Assembly: GCA_942492995.1 (NCBI GenBank)
Contig: OW818653.1
Coordinates: 1,080,001-1,112,000 of the forward strand
DNA length: 32,000 nt
Source: an uncultured Erysipelotrichaceae bacterium
Lineage (GTDB): Bacteria; Bacillota_I; Bacilli_A; Erysipelotrichales; Erysipelotrichaceae
Reading direction: 5' to 3'
Under the pieces are notes generated by a model. That model was given only the letters and a program-made list of their open reading frames with translations. It was not told the DNA's origin and did no database searches. Positions 2,218-21,903 of the stretch are shown piece after piece (the stretch's first letter is position 1; every line of letters begins with the position of its first letter). The position numbers and the translations under genes are program-made.

Positions 2218-2253
2218 GTCATTACAATTGAATTATGTATTGAGGGGAAGATC

Positions 2254-2514
2254 ATGAGAGAAAACGGTTTTGGGGAAGTCGTTTCTCTTGGTTTACCAAA
2301 GGACGAAGAATTCGAAAGTTTTCGTAGAACCTTTGGCGCAAGAGTGAAGCACTTCAGAAGAAGTTGTGGATTGTCGCAAGAAGAATTAGCAGAAAGAAGT
2401 CGACTTCATCGTAATTACATTTCAGATGTAGAACGAGGAAGAAGGAATTTATCGTTGGATGCGTTGTTGAAACTCGCCAATGGTTTGGGAATTAACATTC
2501 GGGATATGTTCTGA
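2254..2514 (+). CDS. XRE-family helix-turn-helix transcriptional regulator (86 aa)
   Basis: HTH_3-type core FGARVKHFRRSCGLSQEELAERSRLHRNYISDVERGRRNLSLDALLKLANGL. I chose the ATG at 2254 because GAGGGG (2242-2247) sits 6 nt upstream. The ORF-track start at 2209 lies inside the putative -10 region. Confidence 0.8.
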   Translation: MRENGFGEVVSLGLPKDEEFESFRRTFGARVKHFRRSCGLSQEELAERSRLHRNYISDVERGRRNLSLDALLKLANGLGINIRDMF

Positions 2515-2523
2515 ACAGTCAAC

Positions 2524-2544
2524 AAGCGCGTAATGCGCTTTTTG
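2524..2544 (+). terminator. Rho-independent terminator after the XRE gene
   Basis: AAGCGC (2524-2529) / GTAAT loop / GCGCTT (2535-2540), followed by TTTG. Confidence 0.6.
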
Positions 2545-2571
2545 ATTCGCTTAAAGCTTTCATGGTATAAT
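2542..2571 (+). promoter_or_regulatory. Sigma-70-type promoter for the 2-TM peptide / DUF2156 / GNAT unit
   Basis: TTGATT (2542-2547), 18-nt spacer, TATAAT (2566-2571), with an extended -10 TG at 2563-2564. AAGGAAA RBS at 2576-2582 precedes the ATG at 2587. Confidence 0.55.
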
Positions 2572-2586
2572 GACTAAGGAAAATTT

Positions 2587-2820
2587 ATGAACATATTACG
2601 TGCACTTATTGTATCGATGATTGGTATATTTATATTAATGACCTTATGGCCATTATTTGTTTTTTTAGTTATCGTTTTTGGGATTTACTGGTTCGCAATA
2701 AGTATGCGAATTAGACGAATGAATCAAACGGTAAGAGAAGAATTCAATCAAACAAACACTCAAACTGATACTAAACCAAAAGATGTAATCGATGCTCAAT
2801 ATACAGAAAGAAGCGAATAA
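2587..2820 (+). CDS. Small hypothetical membrane protein (two predicted TM helices, polar C-terminal tail)
   Basis: 77-aa ORF with its own RBS. It has two hydrophobic segments (ALIVSMIGIFILMTLW and LFVFLVIVFGIYWFAI) followed by a basic patch RIRRMNQ. I recognise no family. Confidence 0.5.
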   Translation: MNILRALIVSMIGIFILMTLWPLFVFLVIVFGIYWFAISMRIRRMNQTVREEFNQTNTQTDTKPKDVIDAQYTERSE

Positions 2821-3733
2821 TACTATGGTGTGTATAGATGATGCAGATTTTATAGCAGTTACTGAAGAAGATATTCCATTAATAAGTAAATATCTAGATA
2901 TCGCTCAAATTGAAGAAAGTAATCATAATTTAGTGAACATGTTTCTTTGGCGTGAACAGTATCCATTATGGCAATATCATAATGATCATTACATGTTACT
3001 TCTAGGAATTCATAAGGGTAAGTTATTTAGTTATATGCCTTTATGTGAAGAAGAGTTTTTTGAAGAAGCTTTATTAAAAGCTCATTCAATATTTAATAAA
3101 TTTAATGTTCCTTTTGAATTGTCTTGTTTTACTAAATCTGGATTAGAAAAAGTTCAGAAGTTATTCCCTTCTTGTAAAGTCACGATTGAAGTAGAAGCTG
3201 CGGATTATGTGTATGAAGGTGAAAAGATGAGAACATTATCTGGCAAGAAACTTCAAAAGCGAAGAAATAATTACAATCATTTTGTGACTGAATATACAGG
3301 ACGATTCGTATATGAAGATTTAACACAAGACCATATTCCTGAACTTAATGCTTATCTTAATACTTGGAGAACGGATTCTACTGAAGAATACTTAATCTAT
3401 GAAGCTAAGGGTGTTCATGATGTGTTAAACCTATATGGTGTATTACCGTATTCTGGTGGAGTTATACGTATTGATGGAGAAGTTAAGGCATTTCTAATTG
3501 CTTCTTTGGCAACGCGAGATATGGTACAAATCAATATTGAGAAAGCGGATCATACCATTCGTGGGTTGTATCAAGCGATTGAGAAGTTATTCTTAGAGAA
3601 GAATTATCCTACGATTGAGTGGGTGAATCGAGAAGATGATATGGGGATTGAATCGCTTATTCTTGCGAAGAAAGCACTTCATCCAAGCCATATGATTGAT
3701 AAATACAGGATAAAAGCAAATGGCAAGACTTAG
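2792..3733 (+). CDS. DUF2156 / LPG_synthase_C-like protein (stand-alone homologue of the MprF aminoacyl-phosphatidylglycerol synthase catalytic domain)
   Basis: About 300-aa soluble protein. The N-terminal NHNLVNMFLWREQYPLWQY motif, the mid-protein KKLQKRRNNYNHF and the tandem GNAT-like layout are typical of DUF2156. The start is ambiguous: ATG 2792 overlaps the preceding ORF by 29 nt, while ATG 2825 lies 4 nt after its stop. Confidence 0.65.
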   Translation: MLNIQKEANNTMVCIDDADFIAVTEEDIPLISKYLDIAQIEESNHNLVNMFLWREQYPLWQYHNDHYMLLLGIHKGKLFSYMPLCEEEFFEEALLKAHSIFNKFNVPFELSCFTKSGLEKVQKLFPSCKVTIEVEAADYVYEGEKMRTLSGKKLQKRRNNYNHFVTEYTGRFVYEDLTQDHIPELNAYLNTWRTDSTEEYLIYEAKGVHDVLNLYGVLPYSGGVIRIDGEVKAFLIASLATRDMVQINIEKADHTIRGLYQAIEKLFLEKNYPTIEWVNREDDMGIESLILAKKALHPSHMIDKYRIKANGKT

Positions 3734-4640
3734 ACGAGCAAAAGATGAAGATAAGGCTTTAGTTTACCGTTGGTGGAAAGGTATTTTTGCGGAGGATGAT
3801 GGGGGTCATACTGATTATTATTTTGATCAACTTTATCAGACTAAACAATCATACTTATTAGTAGATGAAAATGATGAACTTATTAGTAGTTGTCAGGTTC
3901 ATACGCGTACACTTGATTTTAATGGTAAACCACTACAGATTAGTTTTATTGTGGGTGTTTTTACGTTACCTAAATTTCGTAATCAAGGGTATATGAAAGA
4001 ATTAATTACTAAGGTATTGGATATTTTAGAACATAGAGATTTATTAACGTATATTCAAGGGTATAATCCTGATCTTTATGTACAATATGGTTTTGAGAAA
4101 ATATACATTCGTAATCACTATTGGCTTGATACCTTAAGCTTACCTACATTAAGTCCAATGGGTGTTACATATTCATGTTCAGCTCTTGAACTAAGAGATT
4201 TGTATCGTCAATTCACGAAACATTTTACGGGTTATGTCGTTCGTAGTACTGAAGATTTCAATCAGTTATTACTTGAATTAAATGCCCTTGGTGGCAAATT
4301 AATTGCGTACCAGGATAATGGTAAACTATTAGCTTATGCGCTTGTATACGCTTATTCTGACCATATAGAGATAGAAGAAATGGTATATCTTAATTCCAAG
4401 GCGATGATGTCGATATTAGCTTCATTAAAGAGTGTTAATCTACCGATTCGTTTGTCTGTTTCTGAGAAAGAAGATCTTAGTCGTATCTTCCCTTACGCAA
4501 CTCTTGAGAAAACTGAATATACAAATGTACGTCTTAATGATGCACGATTAATGAATGAGTTATTTAAATTAAATATTAAAACAGCAGAAGCATTCTTTAT
4601 TGCGGCAGAAAAACCAATCTGGTTTAGAGAAAACCAATAA
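3720..4640 (+). CDS. Eis-like GNAT family N-acetyltransferase (short form)
   Basis: 306 aa. The acetyl-CoA loop VFTLPKFRNQGYMKELI (R/Q-x-x-G-x-G/A type) is followed by a second GNAT-like region and a short C-terminal domain, as in Eis/Acetyltransf_9-17 proteins. The ATG overlaps the DUF2156 stop by 14 nt. Confidence 0.6.
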   Translation: MARLRRAKDEDKALVYRWWKGIFAEDDGGHTDYYFDQLYQTKQSYLLVDENDELISSCQVHTRTLDFNGKPLQISFIVGVFTLPKFRNQGYMKELITKVLDILEHRDLLTYIQGYNPDLYVQYGFEKIYIRNHYWLDTLSLPTLSPMGVTYSCSALELRDLYRQFTKHFTGYVVRSTEDFNQLLLELNALGGKLIAYQDNGKLLAYALVYAYSDHIEIEEMVYLNSKAMMSILASLKSVNLPIRLSVSEKEDLSRIFPYATLEKTEYTNVRLNDARLMNELFKLNIKTAEAFFIAAEKPIWFRENQ

Positions 4641-4661
4641 AAATAGACATATGTGAAATTT

Positions 4662-4679
4662 TTGTGAGATGTTTCACAA
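4662..4679 (+). promoter_or_regulatory. Rex-type (CRP/FNR-like) palindromic operator candidate abutting the gap -35
   Basis: TTGTGAG-ATGT-TTCACAA matches the Firmicute Rex consensus TTGTGAA-N4-TTCACAA with one mismatch. It also reads as TGTGA-N6-TCACA. An extra half-site ATGTGAA lies at 4651-4657. Confidence 0.45.
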
Positions 4680-4708
4680 TTGACTTTTAATGTGTATAAC
4701 TCTATAAT
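4680..4708 (+). promoter_or_regulatory. Strong sigma-70-type promoter of gap
   Basis: TTGACT (4680-4685), 17-nt spacer, TATAAT (4703-4708). AGGAGG RBS at 4723-4728. Confidence 0.7.
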
Positions 4709-4737
4709 TATGTGTGTCAATTAGGAGGAAATTATTG

Positions 4738-5751
4738 ATGACAGCAAGAATTGCGATTAATGGATTTGGTCGTATCGGCCGTTTGGCATTCCGCATTATG
4801 TGGGGTAACCCAGCGTTTGAAATCGTTGCACTCAACGACTTAACCGATGCTAAGACCTTGGCTCATTTATTAAAGTATGATTCATCTCAAGGACGTTTCG
4901 ATGGTCATACTGTTAGCTTTGAAGGTGAAGATTTAATTGTTGATGGTAAGACTGTAAAAGTATTAAAAGAAAAAGATCCTGCATTACTACCTTGGGCTGA
5001 TCTAAAAGTTGATGTTGTTATTGAATCAACTGGATTCTTCACTAAGAAAGATACAGCTTCTGCTCATATTAAAGCAGGTGCTCGTAAAGTTATTATCTCT
5101 GCTCCAGCAGGTGATGATGTAGAAACCGTAGTATTTAATGTTAACCACAGTATTTTAGATGGTTCAGAAACAGTTATCTCTGGTGCTTCATGTACTACTA
5201 ACTGTTTAGCTCCAATGGCTAAATGCTTAAATGACAATTTCGAAATTTTAAATGGTTCTATGACTACGATTCATGCGTACACTAATGATCAAAACACGTT
5301 AGATGCACCACACCGTAACGGTGACTTGCGTCGTGCTCGTGCAGCTGCAGCTAACATTATTCCTAACTCAACAGGTGCTGCTAAAGCAATCGGTCTAGTT
5401 GTTCCTGAATTAAAGGGCAAATTAGACGGTGCTGCTCAACGTGTTCCTGTTATTACTGGTTCAATCACTGAATTAGTAGCAGTAGTTAAGAAAGAATGTA
5501 CTGTTGCGGAAATCAATGCAGCGATGAAAGCAGCTTCTAACGAATCATTCGGTTACACTGAAGATCAAATCGTTAGTTCAGATGTTATCGGTATTGCGTT
5601 TGGTTCATTATTCGATGCTACACAAACTAAAGTTCAAAATATCGGTGGTATTTGCTTAGTTAAAGTTGCAGCATGGTATGACAATGAAGCTTCATACACT
5701 AACCAATTAGTACGTACAGCTAAATACTTAGCTGAACAATCAAAGTTCTAA
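4738..5751 (+). CDS. gap: Type I glyceraldehyde-3-phosphate dehydrogenase
   Basis: [12 protein letters not shown]-binding motif, active-site SCTTNCLAP, and WYDNE near the C-terminus. The ATG at 4738 is 9 nt after AGGAGG. The ORF-track start at 4714 is a GTG inside the promoter/leader. Confidence 0.95.
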
Positions 5752-5760
5752 TCTAGATTA

Positions 5761-5788
5761 AGAGACATTCGCAAGAGTGTCTTTTTTT
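5761..5788 (+). terminator. Rho-independent terminator of gap
   Basis: Stem 5761-5770 pairs with 5775-5784 (including two G-U pairs) around a GCAA tetraloop (5771-5774). The T run continues to 5788. Confidence 0.8.
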
Positions 5789-5834
5789 ATACACGTTTAT
5801 TGAGATTCTTTAGTTCATTTGTTATTGTTAGATT

Positions 5835-6071
5835 ATGTTAAAAGAAATTAATTTAGACCAATCCTTATTTACCCTTCTCGATCATTATCCTGATTTGATT
5901 GAAGTACTCTATGATTTTGGATTTACTCAAATCAAACTTCCTGGAATGATACAATCTGCTGGACGTTTTATGACTCTTAGAAAAGGGTGTGAAATGAAGA
6001 AGTTAGATATTGACTTGTTAGTAAAAATATTTATTAAACTTGGATATACAATAAAAGAAGGTTCAAATTGA
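5835..6071 (+). CDS. DUF1858 domain-containing small protein
   Basis: 78 aa. LLDHYPDLIEVLYDFGF...MIQSAGRFMTLRKGCEMKKLDIDLLV matches the DUF1858 pattern (YP-x-L, internal G, TL-x-x-A/C, helical tail). No convincing RBS was seen. Confidence 0.55.
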   Translation: MLKEINLDQSLFTLLDHYPDLIEVLYDFGFTQIKLPGMIQSAGRFMTLRKGCEMKKLDIDLLVKIFIKLGYTIKEGSN

Positions 6072-6082
6072 ACCTTCTTTTT
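6053..6082. terminator. Bidirectional terminator shared by the convergent DUF1858 and protease genes
   Basis: A perfect 12-13 bp stem (6053/6054-6065 pairing with 6069-6080/6081) with a 3-nt loop, A-run on the left and T-run on the right. It overlaps the TGA at 6069-6071 and abuts the minus-strand stop at 6081-6083. Confidence 0.75.
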
Positions 6083-9000
6083 AATATATTTTATTTACAA
6101 TCGATACATAAATTCTTTCTTTATAGCCATCTATAGTTTTAACTTCCATTGTTACATACCCAGCAGCTATACCAAAAATAGTTCCTTCATTATCAATAGT
6201 AGCAAGTTCGGGACTAAATGAAGTACAAGTTATAGTCGTAATAGTCGCATTTAATGGCATATATGAGTAATTTACTGTTATATATTTTCCGACTTCAACA
6301 GTATAATATCCAGTATTCTCAAAAATAAATCCATCAATCGGAATATACATATAAGTTTTTAAATTTGAGAACGCACTATATATTTTTGTAGTACCACTCA
6401 TACGATATGCTCGAACTTTATAGTTATAATCAGTTCGTTTAATAATTCCAGTTAGATTAGTAGTTGATGTTGTAACAGTCTTAAGTAAAACATAATTAGT
6501 ACTATATCCAGTTGAATAGTATACTTCATAACCACTTGCCCCTTCAACCTCGTCCCAACTTAGTGTTACTGATGTTGGATTTGTAGTTGATGTTGTAATA
6601 ACACTTGGTGAGTGTAAACTTGTTTTTCCAGAAATTGTACTAGATTCAATACCAATAGTTCCATTTAATGCTACAGGAACAATTTTGAAGTAATATGTTG
6701 AGTTAAAATTTAAATTCGACAATGTACTAAAGCTCGTTTCTGTCACAGATCCAATCTTTGTCGTAACTGTAGTAGACGTCGTCCCTTGGTACACATCATA
6801 ATGATCTGCGCCATCTACTGTGTCCCAACTTAAACTTAATAAATTATAGTCGATACCTGAAACTTTCAAATTTTTAACTGATTGTAACATTAGAATTGCA
6901 TTTACGGTTGTAGAGTTTGCACTTCTGAGTTCACCATTCTTAGCCACTAGACTAAAGGAATAGCTTTCACCTAGATTTAAGCCACTGACATCCACACTAA
7001 TCGCATTCGCATCACTAATCGTACTGTGTTCTAATCCATTCATGTATAACACGTATTGCGTTGCGCCTAAGACTTTTGTCCAGCTTACCGTAATCGTTTC
7101 GATATTCTTACTCACGGCTTTAATCACCGGTGCCACAGGTGGCGTTGTAATTGAACTTATGGAGGAATAATTGCCAAATACTTTAACGGTACCTGCCATA
7201 CGATACGCACGTACTTTATAGTTGTACGTTGTATTTGCGACTAAACCGGTATGATTCGTCGTTAAGGTCGTAACGCTCTTCAAGAAGGTATACGTTGTCG
7301 TACCTGCTTTCGCATAATACACTTCGTATCCAGCTGCCCCTTCAACACTTGCCCAACTTAAATCGGCAGTTGTCGCATTTGGACTGGTAACCAATAGACT
7401 ACTTGGTTCTTTAAGTGTTGTTTTACCTGTAATAACTAATGAAGTAACGCCAGAAATACTATTTGAAGTAACTGGAACCACTTTATAGTAATAACTTGTA
7501 TTGAAATTCAAGGCAGTTAAGGTTGTGAAACTTGTCTCAGTGACACTTCCGATTTTTGTCGTAACCGCTGTCGAGGTCGTGCCTTGGTACACATCGTAAT
7601 GATCTGCACCTGCGACACTATCCCAACTTAAGGTAAAGCGATTGAAGTTTGTGTCACTAATCTTAAAGTTTCCTACCACGGCTGGAACTGGGATGGATGA
7701 AACTGTTGCCGAGTTCGCACTTCTGAGTTCACCATTCTTAGCCACTAGACTAAAGGAATAGCTTTCTCCAAGATTTAAACCACTCACATCCACACTAATC
7801 GCATTCGCATCACTTATTGTACTGTGTTCTAATCCATTCATGTATAACACGTATTCCGTTGCGCCTAAGACTTTCGTCCAGCTCACCGTAATCGTCTCGA
7901 TATTCTTACTCACGGCTTTAATCACTGGTGCCACAGGTGGCGTCGTAATTGAACTGATGGAGGAATAATTTCCGAATATTTTAATTGTGCCAGCCATACG
8001 ATACGCACGTACTTTATAGTTATACGTCGTATTAGCGACTAAACCCGTATGATTCGCAGTTAGAGTCGTCACACTCTTCAAGAACGTATACGTTGTCGTA
8101 CCTGCTTTCGCATAATACACTTCGTATCCAGCTGCGCCTTCAACACTTGCCCAACTTAAATCGGCAGTTGTCGCATTTGGACTGGTAACCAATAGACTAC
8201 TTGGTTCTTTAAGTGTTGTTTTACCTGTAATAACTAATGAAGTAACGCCAGAAATACTATTTGAAGTAACTGGTACTACTTTATAGTAATAACTCGTATT
8301 GAAATTCAAGGCAGTTAACGTGGTGAAACTTGTCTCAGTGACTGAACCGATTTTTGTCGTTACCGCTGTCGAAGTCGTGCCTTGATACACATCGTAATGA
8401 TCTGCGCCATCGACTGCGTCCCAACTTAAGGTAAAGCGATTAAAGTTTGTATCACTGATCTTAAAGTTTCCTACCACGGCTGGAACTGGGATGGATGAAA
8501 CTGTTGCCGAGTTCGCACTTCTGAGTTCACCATTCTTAGCCACTAGACTAAAGGAATAGCTTTCACCTAGATTTAAGCCACTGACATCCACACTAATCGC
8601 ATTCGCATCACTAATCGTACTGTGTTCTAATCCATTCATGTATAACACGTATTGCGTTGCGCCTAAGACTTTTGTCCAGCTTACCGTAATCGTTTCGATA
8701 TTCTTACTCACGGCTTTAATCACCGGTGCCACAGGTGGCGTTGTAATTGAACTTATGGAGGAATAATTGCCAAATACTTTAACGGTACCTGCCATACGAT
8801 ACGCACGTACTTTATAGTTGTACGTTGTATTTGCGACTAAACCGGTATGATTCGTCGTTAAGGTCGTAACGCTCTTCAAGAAGGTATACGTTGTCGTACC
8901 TGCTTTCGCATAATACACTTCGTATCCAGCTGCCCCTTCAACACTTGCCCAACTTAAATCGGCAGTTGTCGCATTTGGACTGGTAACCAATAGACTACTT

Positions 9001-12000
9001 GGTTCTTTAAGTGTTGTTTTACCTGTAATAACTAATGAAGTAACGCCAGAAATACTATTTGAAGTAACTGGAACCACTTTATAGTAATAACTTGTATTGA
9101 AATTCAAGGCAGTTAAGGTTGTGAAACTTGTCTCAGTGACACTTCCGATTTTTGTCGTAACCGCTGTCGAGGTCGTGCCTTGGTACACATCGTAATGATC
9201 TGCACCTGCGACACTATCCCAACTTAAGGTAAAGCGATTGAAGTTTGTGTCACTAATCTTAAAGTTTCCTACCACGGCTGGAACTGGGATGGATGAAACT
9301 GTTGCCGAGTTCGCACTTCTGAGTTCACCATTCTTAGCCACTAGACTAAAGGAATAGCTTTCTCCAAGATTTAAACCACTCACATCCACACTAATCGCAT
9401 TCGCATCACTTATTGTACTGTGTTCTAATCCATTCATGTATAACACGTATTCCGTTGCGCCTAAGACTTTCGTCCAGCTCACCGTAATCGTCTCGATATT
9501 CTTACTCACGGCTTTAATCACTGGTGCCACAGGTGGCGTCGTAATTGAACTGATGGAGGAATAATTTCCGAATATTTTAATTGTGCCAGCCATACGATAC
9601 GCACGTACTTTATAGTTATACGTCGTATTAGCGACTAAACCCGTATGATTCGCAGTTAGAGTCGTCACACTCTTCAAGAACGTATACGTTGTCGTACCTG
9701 CTTTCGCATAATACACTTCGTATCCAGCTGCGCCTTCAACACTTGCCCAACTTAAATCGGCAGTTGTCGCATTTGGACTGGTAACCAATAGACTACTTGG
9801 TTCTTTAAGTGTTGTTTTACCTGTAATAACTAATGAAGTAACGCCAGAAATACTATTTGAAGTAACTGGTACTACTTTATAGTAATAACTCGTATTGAAA
9901 TTCAAGGCAGTTAACGTGGTGAAACTTGTCTCAGTGACTGAACCGATTTTTGTCGTTACCGCTGTCGAAGTCGTGCCTTGATACACATCGTAATGATCTG
10001 CGCCATCGACTGCGTCCCAACTTAAGGTAAAGCGATTAAAGTTTGTATCACTGATCTTAAAGTTTCCTACCACGGCTGGAACTGGGATGGATGAAACTGT
10101 TGCCGAGTTCGCACTTCTGAGTTCACCATTCTTAGCCACTAGACTAAAGGAATAGCTTTCACCTAGATTTAAGCCACTGACATCCACACTAATCGCATTC
10201 GCATCACTAATCGTACTGTGTTCTAATCCATTCATGTATAACACGTATTGCGTTGCGCCTAAGACTTTTGTCCAGCTTACCGTAATCGTTTCGATATTCT
10301 TACTCACGGCTTTAATCACCGGTGCCACAGGTGGCGTTGTAATTGAACTTATGGAGGAATAATTGCCAAATACTTTAATTGTGCCAGCCATACGATACGC
10401 ACGTACTTTATAGTTGTACGTTGTATTTGCGACTAAACCGGTATGATTCGTCGTTAAGGTCGTAACGCTCTTCAAGAAGGTATACGTTGTCGTCCCTGCT
10501 TTTGCATAATACACTTCATAGCCCGCTGCGCCTTCAACACTTGCCCAACTTAAATCGGCAGTCGTTGCATTTGGACTGGTAACGTTTAACCCAGTTAAAT
10601 CCTTTAAAACAGTTTTAGTATTGATAACAAGTGGAGTTGCACCAAGTGTTTCATCATTTGCGACTGGTTGAACTTTAAAGTAGTAAGTTGTATTAAACGT
10701 TAAATTTGATAAAGTGCTAAAACTTGTCTCTGTAACACTACCTATTTTCGTTGTTATTGTTGTTGCAGAAGTTCCTTGATAAATATCATATCTTGTTGCA
10801 CCAAAAACTGGATTCCACTCAAAACTTAATCCATTATACCGAACATCAGTAAAGTGAAGATTCTCGGTTGAAGTAATAGGAGTAACATTTAAGCTTGCAG
10901 GAACCAAAGATAAATTATTCGATGAGTCAAACGCTTGAATTTGAAGTGAATAGCTTTCTCCTGTAATTAGTCCAGATATTTGATAAGTAAGAACTTTCCC
11001 TAAATTGACTTCAGTCCATACTGAATCAGTAGTTTTTTTATAACTTATCTTATAACCTGATAAATCTGGTGCAGTTGAAGCAGCCCAACTTAAATTAATT
11101 TGTGTTCCTGTGACACTTGTTACTTTGAAATTCGAAGGTGATAGTGGCGCTAAATTATCAATTGGCTTAGCAGTTTGGACTACTGAATATGGTGACCATG
11201 AAGTATTATGATCTTTTGCTTTAATTCTGAAATCATAATTTGTTCCATTTGAAAGATTAGATAAAGTATATGAAGTTGTACTTGGAGTTAATGTACTACT
11301 AATAATAGTCCAAGTTGTTGCTGTAGAAGCTTTATATTCTAATTGATACGCAATAACATCGTATTCACTTGATTTCGACCAATTAATAGTTATTTGTTTA
11401 TCGCTTATATTATTTATAGCAAAATCACTTGGAGTAGTCGGTGGTGCTAAATATCTTAATACTCTTTCAGCATCAACAACACCATATCCATAATATATGT
11501 CATAACCAGTCGCTCCAAAATCTCGACTAGAATATTTTAAAATACTTTCAAATTTTGCAGGGGTTAGTCCAGGAAAGTATGCTTTTGCTAATGCTGCAAC
11601 CCCAGCTACATATGGAGATGAGAAAGATGTTCCACTAACCATCTCATAGTAGCAATAACCACAACTTATGTAATCAGCTGTAGAAATAATATCTTCACCT
11701 GGAGCAACTACATCTATTTTGTCATTATGTTGTGAGAAATATGAAACAGAATTTAATTCATTGATTGAACCTACTCCAATTACACCAGTATTCGAAGCTG
11801 GATACATATAAGTAGCAGTTCCATCATTACCAGCGGCAGCAACAATAATTACACCTTTAGAAACAGCATATGTAATTGCATTACTAAGAACTGGATCATT
11901 TGTCGGCCCACCAAGACTAATATTAATTACATCTATACCTAAATCTGTAGCAACATAAATAGCAGAAGCTATATCAGATGAATATGCTTCACCATCAGAA

Positions 12001-12818
12001 TAAGTGACACGATATGGAACTATTGCAACATTCCAGTTTACAGCTGAAATACCATTTCCATTATTAGTACTCGCACCAATAATTCCACTAACTAAGGTTC
12101 CATGACCAGTAGAATCCCAATCAACTGCCTCATCAAAAATCACATCCCATCCCAATCTAATATCAGCATTGTATAAATCCGGATTATCTCTATCAATTCC
12201 TGAGTCAATAACCGCAACTAAAATATCATAAGAACCTTTTTCAAATTCCCAAGCTGAAGATAAATTCATTGCAGAAAGTGCCCATTGATCATAGAAATAA
12301 TAATCATTTGGAACTGCACTTGACTCGAATTTCGAATCTGTCACAACATTTTTGATAAAGCTTTCATATTTAGAAATGAAACCTTCATAATCATCTAGCT
12401 TTACAGAAAATTGACGTAATTCACTTTTACCAATTATTTTATATTTATAGTCAGATAAAATTTCATATACTTTTACCAAATCAACATTATCATTAAATGT
12501 TACATTAAAGCGATTGCCTTTTGCAGTTTGATATTCTTTTTCTAATGCAATATTATCTTTTTTAAGTTTTTCTAAAGATAGAGTAGTCTTCTTATTTAAA
12601 GTACTATCTTTTTCTTTCGAAAGACTTGCAACAGAATCTCTGTACTGGTCTTGACTCGCAAAAGGATTCACTAATGAATCAGTTGCTTGAACATCAAGTT
12701 TAAACTCAATACTCTGAAAAAGACCAATTGATAAGGCTATTGTAACAATTGTTATTTTTCTTAAACTTAACATAATGAAATTCTTAATCCAACCGGATTG
12801 TCTACTCAGTTTTTGCAT
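6081..12818 (-). CDS. Giant surface-associated subtilisin-like serine peptidase (S8) with an FN3-repeat stalk and C-terminal Big_2-like domain (2245 aa)
   Basis: Uninterrupted 6.7-kb ORF. RBS AGGGGA (12825-12830) lies 6 nt before the ATG at 12818. It has the S8 catalytic triad motifs, followed by about 19 FN3-like modules. No LPXTG or C-terminal TM was seen. Confidence 0.9.
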   Translation of the reverse strand: MQKLSRQSGWIKNFIMLSLRKITIVTIALSIGLFQSIEFKLDVQATDSLVNPFASQDQYRDSVASLSKEKDSTLNKKTTLSLEKLKKDNIALEKEYQTAKGNRFNVTFNDNVDLVKVYEILSDYKYKIIGKSELRQFSVKLDDYEGFISKYESFIKNVVTDSKFESSAVPNDYYFYDQWALSAMNLSSAWEFEKGSYDILVAVIDSGIDRDNPDLYNADIRLGWDVIFDEAVDWDSTGHGTLVSGIIGASTNNGNGISAVNWNVAIVPYRVTYSDGEAYSSDIASAIYVATDLGIDVINISLGGPTNDPVLSNAITYAVSKGVIIVAAAGNDGTATYMYPASNTGVIGVGSINELNSVSYFSQHNDKIDVVAPGEDIISTADYISCGYCYYEMVSGTSFSSPYVAGVAALAKAYFPGLTPAKFESILKYSSRDFGATGYDIYYGYGVVDAERVLRYLAPPTTPSDFAINNISDKQITINWSKSSEYDVIAYQLEYKASTATTWTIISSTLTPSTTSYTLSNLSNGTNYDFRIKAKDHNTSWSPYSVVQTAKPIDNLAPLSPSNFKVTSVTGTQINLSWAASTAPDLSGYKISYKKTTDSVWTEVNLGKVLTYQISGLITGESYSLQIQAFDSSNNLSLVPASLNVTPITSTENLHFTDVRYNGLSFEWNPVFGATRYDIYQGTSATTITTKIGSVTETSFSTLSNLTFNTTYYFKVQPVANDETLGATPLVINTKTVLKDLTGLNVTSPNATTADLSWASVEGAAGYEVYYAKAGTTTYTFLKSVTTLTTNHTGLVANTTYNYKVRAYRMAGTIKVFGNYSSISSITTPPVAPVIKAVSKNIETITVSWTKVLGATQYVLYMNGLEHSTISDANAISVDVSGLNLGESYSFSLVAKNGELRSANSATVSSIPVPAVVGNFKISDTNFNRFTLSWDAVDGADHYDVYQGTTSTAVTTKIGSVTETSFTTLTALNFNTSYYYKVVPVTSNSISGVTSLVITGKTTLKEPSSLLVTSPNATTADLSWASVEGAAGYEVYYAKAGTTTYTFLKSVTTLTANHTGLVANTTYNYKVRAYRMAGTIKIFGNYSSISSITTPPVAPVIKAVSKNIETITVSWTKVLGATEYVLYMNGLEHSTISDANAISVDVSGLNLGESYSFSLVAKNGELRSANSATVSSIPVPAVVGNFKISDTNFNRFTLSWDSVAGADHYDVYQGTTSTAVTTKIGSVTETSFTTLTALNFNTSYYYKVVPVTSNSISGVTSLVITGKTTLKEPSSLLVTSPNATTADLSWASVEGAAGYEVYYAKAGTTTYTFLKSVTTLTTNHTGLVANTTYNYKVRAYRMAGTVKVFGNYSSISSITTPPVAPVIKAVSKNIETITVSWTKVLGATQYVLYMNGLEHSTISDANAISVDVSGLNLGESYSFSLVAKNGELRSANSATVSSIPVPAVVGNFKISDTNFNRFTLSWDAVDGADHYDVYQGTTSTAVTTKIGSVTETSFTTLTALNFNTSYYYKVVPVTSNSISGVTSLVITGKTTLKEPSSLLVTSPNATTADLSWASVEGAAGYEVYYAKAGTTTYTFLKSVTTLTANHTGLVANTTYNYKVRAYRMAGTIKIFGNYSSISSITTPPVAPVIKAVSKNIETITVSWTKVLGATEYVLYMNGLEHSTISDANAISVDVSGLNLGESYSFSLVAKNGELRSANSATVSSIPVPAVVGNFKISDTNFNRFTLSWDSVAGADHYDVYQGTTSTAVTTKIGSVTETSFTTLTALNFNTSYYYKVVPVTSNSISGVTSLVITGKTTLKEPSSLLVTSPNATTADLSWASVEGAAGYEVYYAKAGTTTYTFLKSVTTLTTNHTGLVANTTYNYKVRAYRMAGTVKVFGNYSSISSITTPPVAPVIKAVSKNIETITVSWTKVLGATQYVLYMNGLEHSTISDANAISVDVSGLNLGESYSFSLVAKNGELRSANSTTVNAILMLQSVKNLKVSGIDYNLLSLSWDTVDGADHYDVYQGTTSTTVTTKIGSVTETSFSTLSNLNFNSTYYFKIVPVALNGTIGIESSTISGKTSLHSPSVITTSTTNPTSVTLSWDEVEGASGYEVYYSTGYSTNYVLLKTVTTSTTNLTGIIKRTDYNYKVRAYRMSGTTKIYSAFSNLKTYMYIPIDGFIFENTGYYTVEVGKYITVNYSYMPLNATITTITCTSFSPELATIDNEGTIFGIAAGYVTMEVKTIDGYKERIYVSIVNKIY
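6084..6338 (-). other. C-terminal Big_2-like (bacterial Ig-like group 2) domain (last 85 aa)
   Basis: VEVGKYITVNYSYMPLNATITTITCTSFSPELATIDNEGTIFGIAAGYVTMEVKT resembles the Big_2 pattern (V-x-x-G ... S-S-N-x-x-V-A-T-V ... G-x-V-T-A-x-x-x-G). Confidence 0.5.
6339..11435 (-). other. Array of about 19 fibronectin type III-like domains (residues about 462-2160)
   Basis: Modules of about 89 aa each have the L-S-W ... G-A-x-x-Y-x-V/I-Y ... Y-x-F/Y-K/R-V pattern. The layout is 3 unique modules, 5 x 3 modules in the repeated triplet unit (the last one diverged), and 1 terminal module. Confidence 0.8.
6915..10583. repeat. In-frame tandem repeat array: 798-bp unit (266 codons, 3 FN3 domains) x about 4.6, organised as a 1596-bp A+B higher-order repeat
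   Basis: The landmark ACTTCTGAGT occurs at 6921, 7719, 8517, 9315 and 10113, an exact 798-bp period. By eye, 6921-8516 and 8517-10112 are identical. A and B subunits differ at roughly 50-60 of 798 nt. Confidence 0.9.
11454..12311 (-). other. Peptidase S8 catalytic domain (residues about 170-455)
   Basis: Asp205 in VAVIDSGID (codon 12204-12206), His239 in STGHGTLVSG (12102-12104), Asn-region INISLGG, and Ser398 in SGTSFSSPYVAG (11625-11627). It is preceded by an I9-like propeptide region (residues about 100-165). Confidence 0.85.
12708..12818 (-). other. N-terminal signal peptide / signal-anchor segment of the protease (residues 1-37)
   Basis: A basic N-terminus (K3, R6, K12, R20, K21) is followed by the hydrophobic ITIVTIALSIGLF. 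Whether it is cleaved or stays as an anchor cannot be decided by eye. Confidence 0.55.
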
Positions 12819-13080: not shown

Positions 13081-14061
13081 TTAACTAAGTTTTTCTTGCT
13101 TAAATCGATAATAAATTGTGAACACTATAGAGAACAATTTATATGTTGATTTATTAATAAGTTTAAAATATAAGTTTTTTAATCCACCTTGATTTAAATA
13201 AGAGTTTTGTTTCCATGAAGGAAAGTTATCAGCTAATATGGTATAGCTCAACTCTAAGGTTTTATTACGATCATTCTTGTCTTTAATTTGACACGTTCTT
13301 AAGAAAGAATTACCGAGGAAGAAACGAATGAATAGATATTCCAACTCTAATTTATAGTCATTAAAGAGATGTTTATCCTTATAGAAATTCAAAATATCAT
13401 TAAAAACATAAATCATGTCTTTAACGCGATCATTATGATTATGGGTAATAGACCCAACTGTTTGTCTATAATGGACAAAAGGTATATTAACATAAGACCA
13501 TTTCTTAATAAATGGAGCTAATCGATATAAGAATGATGCGTCTTCATAACGATAACCATCAGGGAAATGAAGATCTAATTGTTTTATAAAATCAGTACGA
13601 TAGAGCTTGTTCCAAAGTGTCGCAAACATTTTAATTAGAATTTCTTTATTATCTAAATAAGGTCCATCATTAGTTCGTGTTTCATAGTCTGGATATGTCC
13701 AATAAAAGTCAGAAAAAACACAATCAGAATTATTATCCTTTGCGCTTAAATAAAGTTTCCCAAACATATCTGATTCGACAATATCGTCACTATCCACAAA
13801 TCCAAAATACTCACTATTAACTTGTTGAAAACCGAAATTACGCGTATGTGCAATTCCACCATTTGGTTTAGTAAAAGATCTAATTAATGTTGGATAATTA
13901 GTTTTATACGCATCAATTATTTCCTGAGAATTATCTGAAGAACCATCATTTACTAGGATTAACTCGAAAGAATCTAATGTTTGATTAACTAAAGAATCAA
14001 GAGTTAACTTAAGATGTTTTTCAGCATTATAAATAGGAACAATCACATTAACTTTTATCAT
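13081..14061 (-). CDS. Family 2 glycosyltransferase (GT-A fold)
   Basis: VIVPIYNAEKHLKLTLDSLVNQTLDSFELILVNDGSSDNS followed by a DSDD (DxD) motif. Its start overlaps the upstream stop (TAATG at 14059-14063). Confidence 0.85.
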   Translation of the reverse strand: MIKVNVIVPIYNAEKHLKLTLDSLVNQTLDSFELILVNDGSSDNSQEIIDAYKTNYPTLIRSFTKPNGGIAHTRNFGFQQVNSEYFGFVDSDDIVESDMFGKLYLSAKDNNSDCVFSDFYWTYPDYETRTNDGPYLDNKEILIKMFATLWNKLYRTDFIKQLDLHFPDGYRYEDASFLYRLAPFIKKWSYVNIPFVHYRQTVGSITHNHNDRVKDMIYVFNDILNFYKDKHLFNDYKLELEYLFIRFFLGNSFLRTCQIKDKNDRNKTLELSYTILADNFPSWKQNSYLNQGGLKNLYFKLINKSTYKLFSIVFTIYYRFKQEKLS

Positions 14062-15917
14062 TATTCACCTAAGCTACCTTTCTTATACTCCAATGAATTA
14101 AAATAATCCGTTTCTACTATCTTAAAGCCTAATTGTAATTTCGCATACAATGCGTCAGCTTCTACTCTAAATTCTTCTTCGGTCTTTGTCCAATTATGAG
14201 TAATTGTTCCTCGTAATGTATCAAACGTAAAGTCATTCGATTTAATTACACCAAATTCATTGAAATTAAATCCTGTATAACTTGGATCAAATACACTTTG
14301 ACCTAAGGCTAGTTGATATGGATATTCTATATTAAATAAGTCATAAATTGTAGGCGCAATGTCTAATGGAGAGGATACTTTATCAATATTACCCATTATT
14401 TCATCATTATGCCAAATTATAAATGGGGTATTAAAACAAATGTTAAATTCAATGCCATTCGCTTCACACATTGTACGATAATCTTCTTTATTTTCAAAAA
14501 GTCCTTTAGGAAAATGATCACCATAGATTATGATTACTAAATCTTTTAATAGATCATTATTTTCATAGTCTTTGAGTAAATCACTTAATCCTTTATCCAA
14601 ATCCATGTTCTTCGCAAAGTATATCTTTTCTGCTTCAGGCATATCAGGATATCGCTTATTCACAACATCGTAATATTTCAACATCGTTTCATTAAGTGTA
14701 TCCATAGAGTAAGGTTGATGACCATTATAGGTAATCCAAAATGAGAAATAATTTTCATATTCATACATGATCCATTTTATGTGATCAATGACATAGGAAT
14801 CTTCCACATTATCATATGCATTTAATCCTAATGCATCATAAAATGTATATCCAAGATTTGGTAACATGACGCTTCGATTGTAATAAACACCATAATTATT
14901 ATGGCTAGCCATTGAGAAATATCCTTGATCCGTAAATGATTTCGCAAGGGTTAATGGATATGCATTCTCCGCAAACGCATTAAATGTAATTTTACCGTTA
15001 TTGGATGGAAGTAAACTTGTATTTACCATAAACTCTGTATCAGATGTAGAACCCGCTAATAGAGGTGAATTATACCCTCTTACAAACAATCCACTATGTT
15101 TAAGGCGATAGAGAGTTGGTGTTAGTTCAGGATCGATAGCTAAGTTATTTAAAGACTCTGCTTCAATAAGGAGAACGTTTAACCCTTCAAAGATTCCTGA
15201 ATAATCACTTTTTACTGTAGCTGGTTTCTGATTAAGTAAAGCGGATATCTGTTGTTCAATTGTTAATTCAGCTTGTACTTCGATTGGTTCAATCGTCATA
15301 TCAAATTCACGTAATAATAATCCGTTCAACCCAAACTGTGCCACAAATACGTTCGTGTTTGGGATATTAGCATAAATAACACTTGAGTCGACAAGATTGA
15401 TTGGATTACTTTGAGATGCGTCTAGCTCTTTATGAAATGTAGAATACTGTGTATATCCTAGAGTAATTAATAAAAGTATTATGAGTAATTGTTGAAATGG
15501 GGATGTTATCACAAGATTTTTCTTATAGAGTTTTATCGCAAGATATAGTGCAATAAATGGAACAGTAAAATAAATCACATCCGTTAATCGCGTAAATTCT
15601 AATGCACTACCTGCGAATTTAAACATATTAGATTGTACGGAAAGTGCTGTAGTAATCATTCCATATTGATTGAAAGATCTAAAGAATACGGTCTGAACGC
15701 CAAAGTATATTGATGTGAGTGCAATTAAAATGAACATAACACCAATTCGTGTTTTCTTTGTAAATAAGAGTAAAAATGCATTTAAAAAGGATAAAACAAT
15801 TAAAAGAACTTTAAAAGCTAAGCCCGTTACAATAATGTATTGAAAAGACAGAATCAAATACGATAATGTGAAAATTAAATTAATAAGAACAAATTGGAAT
15901 TTCTTAAGAGAAAACAT
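14061..15917 (-). CDS. LTA synthase (LtaS) family sulfatase-fold polytopic membrane protein
   Basis: 618 aa with about 5 N-terminal TM helices and an extracytoplasmic sulfatase-like domain. That domain has AGSTSDTEFMVNTSLLP (compare the catalytic Thr motif G-x-T-A/S-D-x-EF of LtaS) and IIIYGDHFP. AAGGAAG RBS at 15924-15930. Confidence 0.8.
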   Translation of the reverse strand: MFSLKKFQFVLINLIFTLSYLILSFQYIIVTGLAFKVLLIVLSFLNAFLLLFTKKTRIGVMFILIALTSIYFGVQTVFFRSFNQYGMITTALSVQSNMFKFAGSALEFTRLTDVIYFTVPFIALYLAIKLYKKNLVITSPFQQLLIILLLITLGYTQYSTFHKELDASQSNPINLVDSSVIYANIPNTNVFVAQFGLNGLLLREFDMTIEPIEVQAELTIEQQISALLNQKPATVKSDYSGIFEGLNVLLIEAESLNNLAIDPELTPTLYRLKHSGLFVRGYNSPLLAGSTSDTEFMVNTSLLPSNNGKITFNAFAENAYPLTLAKSFTDQGYFSMASHNNYGVYYNRSVMLPNLGYTFYDALGLNAYDNVEDSYVIDHIKWIMYEYENYFSFWITYNGHQPYSMDTLNETMLKYYDVVNKRYPDMPEAEKIYFAKNMDLDKGLSDLLKDYENNDLLKDLVIIIYGDHFPKGLFENKEDYRTMCEANGIEFNICFNTPFIIWHNDEIMGNIDKVSSPLDIAPTIYDLFNIEYPYQLALGQSVFDPSYTGFNFNEFGVIKSNDFTFDTLRGTITHNWTKTEEEFRVEADALYAKLQLGFKIVETDYFNSLEYKKGSLGE

Positions 15918-19274: not shown

Positions 19275-20665
19275 AATTTAAAGTAGATAAATGGATTATA
19301 ACTACTATCAATTAAGAAGATAATACATAGAACAAATAAAGCAAGGACAATAATACTCTTTAACAAGTTGTATAGTGTGCTTGTTTTTAATTTAGTTTCT
19401 ATCCAAGGAATGAGTGGAGTACTAAAGAGAATCCCTAATAAATAATATGGCCAATAGTTTCCAAAATTTAAGTTAATTAGTGAATCCGCATCATATGGTG
19501 TAATAAATATCATGCGATTTATGAATGCGAATATCTGATCAACACTCGATGAATTAAAGATTACCCAACTTATCATGATTAAGAATACTGTAATTAGATG
19601 ATTTAATCCCTTTAAAAATGAGAGTACTTTTCCTAAGAAGAGTTTTTCAAGAATTAATAAAATACCGAAATAAACACCCCATAAAACGAAATTCCATGCG
19701 GCTCCATGCCATAAACCAGTCGCAAACCATACTATTGCGATATTTCTAATCCAGAGTAAGAAGTTAACTCTATTCCCGCCTAATGGGATATAGATATAAT
19801 CTCTAAACCATGTGCTTAATGAAATATGCCAACGTTTCCAAAAGTCAGTTATGCTTGTGGCAATATAAGGATAATTAAAGTTTTCAAGGAAATGGAATCC
19901 AAAGATACGGGCTATTCCTATAGCCATATCTGAATAACCTGAGAAATCAAAATAGATTTGTAATGTGAATGAGATTACTGCTATATACACCTGTGTTGAA
20001 TTCAATGAACTCAAATCCGTAATCTTGAATACATCTGCCGCAATAACTGCGACTTGATTCGCGATTAATACTTTCTTAGATAAACCAATGATGAAACGTT
20101 GAAGACCATCCACAACATCATCCATTGAAACTTTACGACTTTGGTATTCCTCATGGATTGTTTCATAACGTACAATTGGACCTGAAATAAGGGTTGGAAA
20201 TAAAACCATATAGTTCGCAATGATTAAGAACGATTTTTGAACTGGGATTTTCTTTCGATACACATCAACAACATACGATATAACTCTAAATGTATAAAAA
20301 CTAATACCGATCGGTAAGAAAACTTCACTATACGCAAAATCAGTCCCAAAGATAAAGTTCGTATTCTCTAGAAAGAAGTTCGAATACTTAAAGTAAGAAA
20401 GTAATCCAAGATTCAATATTACAATTAGCCATAAGATTAGTTTACGTGAATTCCCTTCTTTTTTATCCATAACGATGGATAAAGAGTAGTTCACAATAAT
20501 CACAACAAGCATTAATCCTAATGTAGATACTTCACCCCAAGAATAGAAAGCGATAGAAGCGATTAATAATATCGTATTTCGATAATGAATATTCGTTGAT
20601 AAGAAATATAAAATGATTGTCAGTGGAAAAAACAACAATAGAAATGTCATACTACTGAATAACAT
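19271..20665 (-). CDS. MBOAT family O-acyltransferase (AlgI/DltB-like)
   Basis: 464 aa and multi-TM. It carries the signature FWKRWHISLSTWFRDYIYIPLGGNR with the conserved His. Its start overlaps the upstream stop (TAATG at 20663-20667). Confidence 0.85.
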   Translation of the reverse strand: MLFSSMTFLLLFFPLTIILYFLSTNIHYRNTILLIASIAFYSWGEVSTLGLMLVVIIVNYSLSIVMDKKEGNSRKLILWLIVILNLGLLSYFKYSNFFLENTNFIFGTDFAYSEVFLPIGISFYTFRVISYVVDVYRKKIPVQKSFLIIANYMVLFPTLISGPIVRYETIHEEYQSRKVSMDDVVDGLQRFIIGLSKKVLIANQVAVIAADVFKITDLSSLNSTQVYIAVISFTLQIYFDFSGYSDMAIGIARIFGFHFLENFNYPYIATSITDFWKRWHISLSTWFRDYIYIPLGGNRVNFLLWIRNIAIVWFATGLWHGAAWNFVLWGVYFGILLILEKLFLGKVLSFLKGLNHLITVFLIMISWVIFNSSSVDQIFAFINRMIFITPYDADSLINLNFGNYWPYYLLGILFSTPLIPWIETKLKTSTLYNLLKSIIVLALFVLCIIFLIDSSYNPFIYFKF

Positions 20666-21903
20666 TACTCATCCCCCTTAATAACATTATTAAATTTATA
20701 ACGTGGTCCATATTCATCCGCATAGAAATAGTTTTCAATTGTAATCATAAACATAATATCATCTACTTCTTTCTCTTCAATAAACCCATAGAAATCAAAT
20801 GTTTTATAATACTTTAGATAATAGTTTACTGGATTAATCGCATAAACTGTCCCATAGTGTTGAGCTAATAACGGCAATACTGGACCCATATAAGAGTCAC
20901 CTACTACAAACAATACTTTATCATTAACGCCGCTTCGATAGGTATTCATATAGCCTTTAAATGGATATGCAAGATTGTATAAGTAAGTCCATGATTCAAA
21001 TGTTTCAGCTTGATCATAGAACTCTTCATACATTTCAAGGTTTGTGATATCACCATTATCTAGTTCAACTGTATAATTCGCTAAATCATATTGGAATAAA
21101 CAGAATTCGCTAGGGTCTAAAATACCACCTGTACGAGTCGAGAAGCTTCCATAGAATTTATAGTTGCAATCTAAATACGATGGTTCTAATGGTTGTGATT
21201 CTGGTTGTAACATACTGAGCATATCGCGATAACCAATGTAACTTCCAAGATGATTCCAATGATGATCAGATGAATAGAAATGTTGTTCATAATACTCTAA
21301 ATCTTCTATTGTTAAAGATTTATAAGGGACTTTCGCATATTCTTTCATCATTTCATCTAGTTCTACACCATATGTCTCAAGTTCATTTACTTCATCAAAT
21401 AAGCTTGTTTCATGCGCTTGGATTGGATGATAAACAAATACATTTTTATCAGGGAAGAACTCTTGTAGAGCTGCATATTGATCAAGACGTTCTTTAACAC
21501 GTGTTTCTATTCTTTCTTCATATACCATGGGTTTTGTGACAATGTAATTCGATGTCCCAATTCTAAATAAATTTGGATCATTAAGTGGTGTTAATTCAGT
21601 TTCCATACTTGAAATCTGGAAAATCAGACTAGTAAGATAATAATTTACTTTACGTTTGCCATTTACGATCTCATAACGCATAAAGAATTGATCTTCTAGA
21701 ATATGTGCTAACTTTACTTGGAATGTATCATCGAGTGTTTCATTATCATATAAATGTTCAATCGTGTATAAATTACGGTTTTCAATAAAGGAAACGGCTT
21801 GTTGTTCCTTGTAGACGAAAATATACAACACAGAACTAAGTATCATACCAAAAAAAAGAATCAAAAATAGTGCATTTGTTCCTTTACGAAATAATTCCTT
21901 CAT
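20665..21903 (-). CDS. DHHW family protein (AlgJ/AlgX-like extracytoplasmic partner of MBOAT acyltransferases)
   Basis: 412 aa with a single N-terminal TM (ALFLILFFGMILSSVLYIFV) and the eponymous motif in SSDHHWNHLGSY. It is translationally coupled to the MBOAT gene. Confidence 0.7.
   Translation of the reverse strand: MKELFRKGTNALFLILFFGMILSSVLYIFVYKEQQAVSFIENRNLYTIEHLYDNETLDDTFQVKLAHILEDQFFMRYEIVNGKRKVNYYLTSLIFQISSMETELTPLNDPNLFRIGTSNYIVTKPMVYEERIETRVKERLDQYAALQEFFPDKNVFVYHPIQAHETSLFDEVNELETYGVELDEMMKEYAKVPYKSLTIEDLEYYEQHFYSSDHHWNHLGSYIGYRDMLSMLQPESQPLEPSYLDCNYKFYGSFSTRTGGILDPSEFCLFQYDLANYTVELDNGDITNLEMYEEFYDQAETFESWTYLYNLAYPFKGYMNTYRSGVNDKVLFVVGDSYMGPVLPLLAQHYGTVYAINPVNYYLKYYKTFDFYGFIEEKEVDDIMFMITIENYFYADEYGPRYKFNNVIKGDE

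Follow-up and report, generated by a model that had tools for sequence, protein, structure and literature searches.

Proteases of the S8 family that carry C-terminal FN3-type domains occur in Gram-positive bacteria, and include the streptococcal C5a peptidases ScpA and ScpB and the lactococcal PrtP. Long tandem arrays of folded domains are characteristic of the Periscope Proteins of bacterial surfaces, amongst them SasG, Rib/alpha C, Sgo_0707, Esp and CdrA, in which high DNA identity of the tandem domain repeats accompanies repeat-number variation (Whelan et al. 2021, PMC8201768). A further comparison is offered by the A-band FN3/Ig super-repeats of titin, in which a block of several different domains was duplicated as a block. 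Here, a gene comparable with all of these is described from an uncultured Erysipelotrichaceae bacterium. It lies on the minus strand of a 32,000-nucleotide stretch (hereafter the window; contig OW818653.1, positions 1,080,001 to 1,112,000) and encodes, in order, a signal peptide, an S8 protease domain, ~19 FN3 domains and a weak C-terminal Ig-like domain. The FN3 region contains an array of 798-bp units, part of which forms a mismatch-free 1,596-bp tandem duplication that is in all likelihood genuine and of very recent origin.

The 10-mer ACTTCTGAGT is found at 6921, 7719, 8517, 9315 and 10113 and nowhere else in the window (0.04 chance matches expected), exactly the positions and 798-bp period claimed in the original prediction, which had been made from the sequence alone. 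When the window is compared with itself at an offset of 1596, 6919-8782 and 8515-10378 are identical over 1,864 bp with 0 mismatches, slightly more than the mismatch-free pairing of 6921-8516 with 8517-10112 that had been proposed. At an offset of 798 the identity is 93%, and individual units are 93-100% identical to one another in nucleotide sequence. The array was found by offset comparisons in Python; Tandem Repeats Finder reports no array here because only periods up to 500 were covered. In the direction of the gene (coding-sequence position = 12818 - window position + 1, with the unit register starting at coding-sequence position 2236), the units are designated U1 to U5 (Table 1). Strand and unit order had been misread in the original prediction, which described a partial third A copy: this is a full 798-bp unit, the first in gene order, and the truncated A-type copy is U5.

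Comparison of the A-type units reveals a mosaic. U1 and U3 differ at 12 sites, all of which fall within unit columns 18-205, with 0 differences in columns 206-798. Seven of these sites are unique to U1 and five are B-type, the latter made up of the four positions of the predicted B-type patch (Table 1), which is real, and one further site. The first 473 nt of U5 are A-type, and the other 325 nt contain 126 differences (61% identity). U3 therefore equals U5 over columns 1-473 and U1 over columns 206-798, whilst U1 and U5 are separated by the 12 differences in columns 1-205, which is the pattern left by a single crossover: U3 is exactly a U5 head joined to a U1 tail, the point of transition falling between columns 206 and 473.

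The immediate cause of the duplication is probably one unequal recombination or template switch that turned a three-unit array into a five-unit array. The immediate ancestor would have had the order U1 (A), U2 (B) and U5 (A head with an old, diverged tail), in which the same 268-bp stretch occurred in U1 and, at a distance of 1,596 bp, in U5. A single event inside this stretch, either unequal homologous recombination or template switching during replication, would have duplicated 1,596 bp, with U3 as the hybrid A unit and U4 as the additional B unit. The protein would thereby have gained 532 aa, equivalent to six FN3 domains, in frame, and, as predicted, recombinants between units retain the frame (798 = 3 x 266). 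On the aligned units, a single crossover within the 268-bp stretch would account for every base, with no mutation since. The 0 differences in 1,864 compared bases make the duplication very recent, in agreement with the earlier proposal of a very recent duplication of an AB dimer.

An identical protein, P0001, is present in NCBI and is encoded on a contig of 2,008,347 bp. The closest relative, P0002 (L001), is 61% identical and syntenic, and has four in-register diverged units with no stretch above 85% nucleotide identity; more distant relatives, belonging to other species with incomplete assemblies, have 1.3 to 5 units. Short-read contigs L002-L005 contain stretches of 276-288 bp that are 95-100% identical and lie one unit apart, and contig L006 begins within the array. 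L046 (GCA_040373375.1, JBDXXF010000001.1, 7342-17545), a syntenic relative that was among the 3 proteins recovered by a profile search with the unit alignment, has two tandem protease-FN3 paralogues, and in both of them a 100-N scaffold gap falls exactly within the unit array. The array had been marked in advance as a likely trouble spot for assembly, and it is here that L006, L046 and the short-read contigs, with their ~280-bp stretches, fail. One family member comes from Erysipelotrichaceae bacterium UBA6182. Neither a sibling strain nor a close relative was found when the N-terminal 700 aa were compared with genome and metagenome contigs, nor was a sibling found in metagenome contigs by an exact 32-nt pattern from the unit; querying with the exact protein likewise gave no contig. 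A literature search found no paper joining Erysipelotrichaceae, subtilisin and FN3.

Several points weigh against a single crossover or its functional reading. The copy number rests on the single assembly of this organism, the unit count of the closest relative is close to that found here (four versus five), with no obvious long-term net change, and no cell anchor is detected, which leaves an adjustable-reach function unsupported. In addition, a long conversion tract in a pre-existing five-unit array gives the same identity pattern, with an extra coincidence needed: a tract of ~1.86 kb, displaced by two units, would have overwritten U3-U5 with U1-U3. Multi-unit arrays do appear to be old, as P0002 has a diverged fifth unit besides its four in-register units, and patchy conversion is evident inside the array. 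However, donor and acceptor would have 268 bp in common, which presupposes that U1 and U3 were already identical there, and a crossover covers the same data with one event and no additional assumption. A long conversion tract is less likely than a single crossover, and is improbable in its own right. It is also conceivable, with a still smaller chance, that the copy number is wrong or that true differences between copies were wiped out by consensus polishing, given that related assemblies break exactly at the array and that no second assembly of the organism was found. Repeats of this kind are, however, collapsed and not expanded by short-read assemblers, the reading frame continues through the array, the hybrid junction is structured as expected of a biological crossover, and the 7% difference between A and B survived polishing; the presence of an identical protein on a 2.0-Mb contig and the intactness of all neighbouring open reading frames (ORFs) further support a sound assembly. 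A haplotype mix-up was also considered as the cause of the A/B alternation and is unlikely, as all relatives have multi-unit arrays and the array edges differ.

The A and B types themselves are 93.2% identical in nucleotide sequence, with 54 differences in 798 nt, and are distinguished by six of 266 aa (T/A, V/I, V/I, Q/E, A/S and D/A), within the 50-60 nt and about 6 aa estimated earlier and at the same residues. The non-synonymous and synonymous divergences (dN and dS) are 0.017 and 0.28, a ratio of 0.06 by the NG86 method and of 0.07-0.08 by others, which indicates purifying selection on the protein sequence of the unit and upholds the older A/B divergence under such selection that had been postulated. 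The 49 differing codons are clustered (longest identical run 45 codons, permutation p 0.002; bin variance p 0.001), a distribution that, like the mosaic of U1, fits the patchy gene conversion between A and B suggested in the original prediction. Neighbouring units of 93% identity have identical runs of up to 137 bp. Unit similarity within a protein is 82-100% in this gene and 67-73% in P0002, and between the two proteins it is 61-66%. On these sequence comparisons, the units appear to evolve in concert or by repeated re-expansion, with their protein sequence held by purifying selection. A different origin for the two types would be that B is the equivalent unit of another strain or species, which was recombined in and then placed in tandem. 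A mostly synonymous divergence of 7% with so low a ratio is typical of orthologues from related species, and the base composition of the units is foreign to the rest of the gene, but purifying selection on paralogous units yields the same pattern, A and B have equal G+C content at third codon positions (GC3; 0.368 each) and an identical low-GC3 patch, and no donor nearer than 71% amino-acid identity was found. Such an import of B is very unlikely. As a separate observation, unit codons 191 and 215 differ between the types at all three bases, codon 191 being GCA (Ala) in A and AGT (Ser) in B, and codon 215 being TCA (Ser) in A and AGT (Ser) in B; a switch between the serine codon families (TCA/AGT) requires a non-serine intermediate or a multi-base change.

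The base composition of the units is itself anomalous. GC3 is ~0.36 in the units (6594-10583) and 0.145 in the rest of the gene (6081-12818), a difference significant by Fisher's test both when one A+B pair is set against the remainder of the gene (p 9e-22) and when all unit-like codons are set against the rest (4e-31). The G+C content of fourfold-degenerate sites reaches 44% in the repeats, whereas the remainder of the gene has 12% and the neighbouring genes 22%. At residues shared with L001, the count of GC-ending codons is 80 in this gene versus 39, compared with 40 versus 52 in an N-terminal control. Amino-acid composition can be dismissed as the cause on the basis of the fourfold sites and this same-residue comparison, and translational selection was also rejected, the excess consisting mostly of G-ending fourfold codons. 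L002, L003, L004/5 and L006 likewise have a local rise in GC3. In L046 the rise is seen in the unit sequence downstream of each gap and is weak or lacking on the upstream side, and L001, whose diverged units are at the genomic level, has none. The rise tracks arrays that are near-identical or unresolved in assembly, in which the GC3 of the unit is two- to threefold that of the gene and genome it belongs to, and would accompany active duplication or homogenisation of the array. It is not a general trait of near-identical FN3 arrays, since unrelated arrays from other taxa (L035, L021, L011 and L020) have no such shift. Between lineages the units are only 64-70% identical and yet all GC-rich, which is hard to reconcile with a single foreign origin and points to a persistent force acting locally, for example GC-biased conversion.

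GC-biased gene conversion is known in multigene families of eukaryotes, and the present case resembles it in that GC3 is raised specifically in recombining sequence. That intragenic repeat recombination drives GC enrichment in this low-GC Bacillota bacterium, through GC-biased conversion or repair on a scale of a few hundred bases, is offered as a tentative possibility and is on balance doubtful. The last 28 codons (84 bp) of every unit have a GC3 of 0.07 (0.00-0.09 in U5) and are identical in U1-U4, with no A/B difference. That the segment identical in all units has the lowest GC3 counts against the simplest model of GC-biased conversion. The corresponding part of the unit in relatives has a GC3 of 0.15-0.5, and no donor sequence for the patch was found. 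The effect reported in bacteria (Lassalle et al. 2015, PMC4450053) is a small one that separates whole genes from one another, whereas here GC3 changes from 0.145 to 0.36 inside one gene.

Table 1. Features of the protease gene and its unit array in window coordinates (cds, coding sequence; columns, positions within the 798-bp unit)
Feature	Window position	cds position	Strand	GC3	Basis or remark
Whole protease gene, 2,245 aa	6081..12818		-		ORF and translation; only long ORF at this place
Signal peptide, aa 1-45, hydrophobic core ITIVTIALSIGLF	12684..12818		-		Read off translation; N-terminus conserved in homologues P0002-P0005
Subtilase (S8) catalytic domain, aa 198-446, triad D205/H239/S398	11481..12227		-		Pfam, structure matches, motifs
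Three FN3 domains upstream of array, aa 460-745	10584..11441		-	0.147	23% aa identity to units
Perfectly periodic stretch, period 1596, 3,460 bp = 2 x 1596 + 268, no mismatch	6919..10378		-		Self-comparison
U1, A-type with older 5' edge, first in gene order	9786..10583	2236-3033	-		Full 798-bp unit
U2, B-type	8988..9785	3034-3831	-		Unit alignment
U3, A-type, apparent recombinant unit	8190..8987	3832-4629	-		Columns 1-473 = U5, 206-798 = U1
U4, B-type, 100% identical to U2	7392..8189	4630-5427	-		Unit alignment
U5, A head and diverged tail, last in gene order	6594..7391	5428-6225	-		Unit alignment
B-type patch in U1, 4 sites, V-to-I change giving TIKVFG	10379..10386		-		Columns 198-205
268-bp common stretch in U1 (columns 206-473), putative crossover interval	10111..10378		-		Identical in U1, U3 and U5
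268-bp common stretch in U3, holding the putative duplication junction	8515..8782		-		Unit alignment
268-bp common stretch in U5	6919..7186		-		Unit alignment
Low-GC3 84-bp patches	6594-6677, 7392-7475, 8190-8273, 8988-9071, 9786-9869				Unit ends
Last FN3 domain and C-terminal Big_2-like domain	6084..6593		-		Big-like E 7.7e-5, Big_2 E 0.0016
Bidirectional terminator-like hairpin, 13-bp stem	6053..6081		.		Overlaps first base of stop codon (6081-6083)
U1 to U5 head				0.37-0.41	GC3 by region
Diverged U5 tail				0.23	GC3 by region
Rest of same gene				0.13-0.17	GC3 by region
Neighbouring genes				0.20-0.30	GC3 by region

The encoded protein matches PF00041 (fn3) in 17 stretches (E 3.9e-98, 322 bits) and Peptidase_S8 with an E value of 1e-50, in keeping with the protease gene and the three FN3 domains per 266 codons recognised in the original prediction. 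The catalytic domain belongs to the S8 family, scoring 173 bits against PF00082 (cut-off 21.8), and possesses the motifs of the catalytic triad, D205 in VIDSG, H239 in GHGT and S398 in GTSFSSP. Among solved structures, the domain is nearest to AK.1 protease (1dbi, E 1.6e-44) and to thermitase (1thm), with matches spanning E 1e-36 to 1e-44. Identity as a type VII secretion mycosin was rejected, the TIGR03921 score of 212.7 bits lying under the NCBIfam equivalog cut-off of 278.75, as were dentilisin PrtP and PatA/PatG, whose scores are also under the cut-offs. Cleavage of the signal peptide probably follows DVQA.

Each 798-bp unit encodes three different FN3 domains that are ~25% identical to one another, as measured from frame-shifted matches, so that identical domains are never adjacent. 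Modelled with AlphaFold, one unit forms three domains of all-beta structure (predicted local distance difference test score, pLDDT, 86.7), and the beta-sandwich fold of the repeat in this model, together with the profile match, places it amongst FN3 domains. Foldseek matches of the model are three-domain fragments of fibronectin (FN10-12, template modelling (TM) score 0.6), titin and contactins. The linkers are short and the model resembles extended fibronectin fragments, with an inter-domain geometry that is unreliable (predicted TM score, pTM, 0.67). At the C-terminus, the Big-like and Big_2 matches fall below the Pfam cut-off in this protein and are clear in homologues P0003-P0005 (PF02368). 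The module that follows the FN3 array differs among P0002, P0003/P0004, L006 and the window (6084-6350), being Big_2-like here, Big_2 with an unassigned domain of 190 aa in P0003/4, an unassigned domain of 120 aa in P0002 and a faint PASTA-like match in L006. From these C-termini, a tip or anchor module appears to be shuffled between family members.

In common with Periscope Proteins, the protease has its functional domain at the N-terminus and, behind it, a long tandem array of folded Ig-like domains, and its repeats are sufficiently alike in DNA (93-100% nucleotide identity) that in-frame gain and loss by intragenic recombination is to be expected. The functional domain is a protease here and an adhesin in those proteins. 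Furthermore, variation in repeat number across strains is one of their defining traits, whereas the present gene is represented by one assembly, and its repeating element is a three-domain super-repeat with neighbouring domains ~25% identical, an arrangement that keeps identical domains from lying side by side, a situation discussed for Periscope Proteins (PMC8201768). Those proteins are attached to the surface, the array thereby determining the reach of the functional domain, whereas no C-terminal wall anchor or other attachment module is detected in the protease. The original prediction had made the array the stalk of a surface protein, which is not borne out: neither an LPXTG-like motif nor a C-terminal hydrophobic segment is present in the protease, and searches of Pfam and NCBIfam identified no known wall-binding domain, only the sub-threshold Big_2-like domain. 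Attachment is therefore not evident from sequence features, and an unrecognised mode is conceivable. By analogy, the array would work like that of a Periscope Protein, and the gene product may be described as a Periscope-like repeat protein without being filed as a Periscope Protein.

The likeness to titin lies in the duplication of a block of different domains and extends to structure, titin FN3 tandems (8bnq, 8q6t) being among the best structural matches to the unit. Titin, however, is a eukaryotic muscle protein whose super-repeats are old, diverged and not identical in DNA. From ScpA, ScpB and PrtP, the protease differs in its catalytic domain, which is nearest to thermitase and AK.1, in having 19 FN3 domains instead of three and in lacking an LPXTG motif.

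An FN3 domain is roughly 3.5 nm long. The 1.86-kb perfect direct repeat and the 93%-identical neighbouring units would be expected to let the array shrink or grow often by 532 or 266 aa while staying in frame, and such changes would bring the protease about 10-20 nm nearer to the C-terminal Ig-like domain or farther from it.

The neighbouring genes are concerned with cell-envelope glycopolymers and encode glycosyltransferases, an LtaS-like sulfatase and, in a syntenic relative, an MBOAT protein. The protease gene always adjoins a GT2 glycosyltransferase gene and an LtaS-like sulfatase gene (13081-15917 of the window; L001, L002 and L046). A functional link to the envelope glycopolymer, for example attachment of the protease to the polymer, is possible. 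The adjoining GAPDH has 84-87% identity to proteins recorded under the names Erysipelotrichaceae or Erysipelotrichales. Elsewhere in the window, a 22-bp tandem repeat of 2 copies with an 80% match (20647-20689) lies between two minus-strand ORFs and is probably insignificant.

The tandem duplication represents an ordinary kind of repeat expansion, and a variable surface stalk is a reasonable supposition. The duplication offers a clean example of such expansion, in which the units that recombined, the hybrid unit that they gave and the 268-bp interval of the crossover are all legible in the sequence. If recombination causes the GC3 anomaly, this anomaly would be more interesting than the duplication itself, and the array would constitute a small natural test system for biased gene conversion, a process that is debated in bacteria. 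Variation in array length would need repeat-aware assembly to be seen; if the length does vary, this Erysipelotrichaceae lineage can retune a secreted or surface protease on the 70-nm scale.

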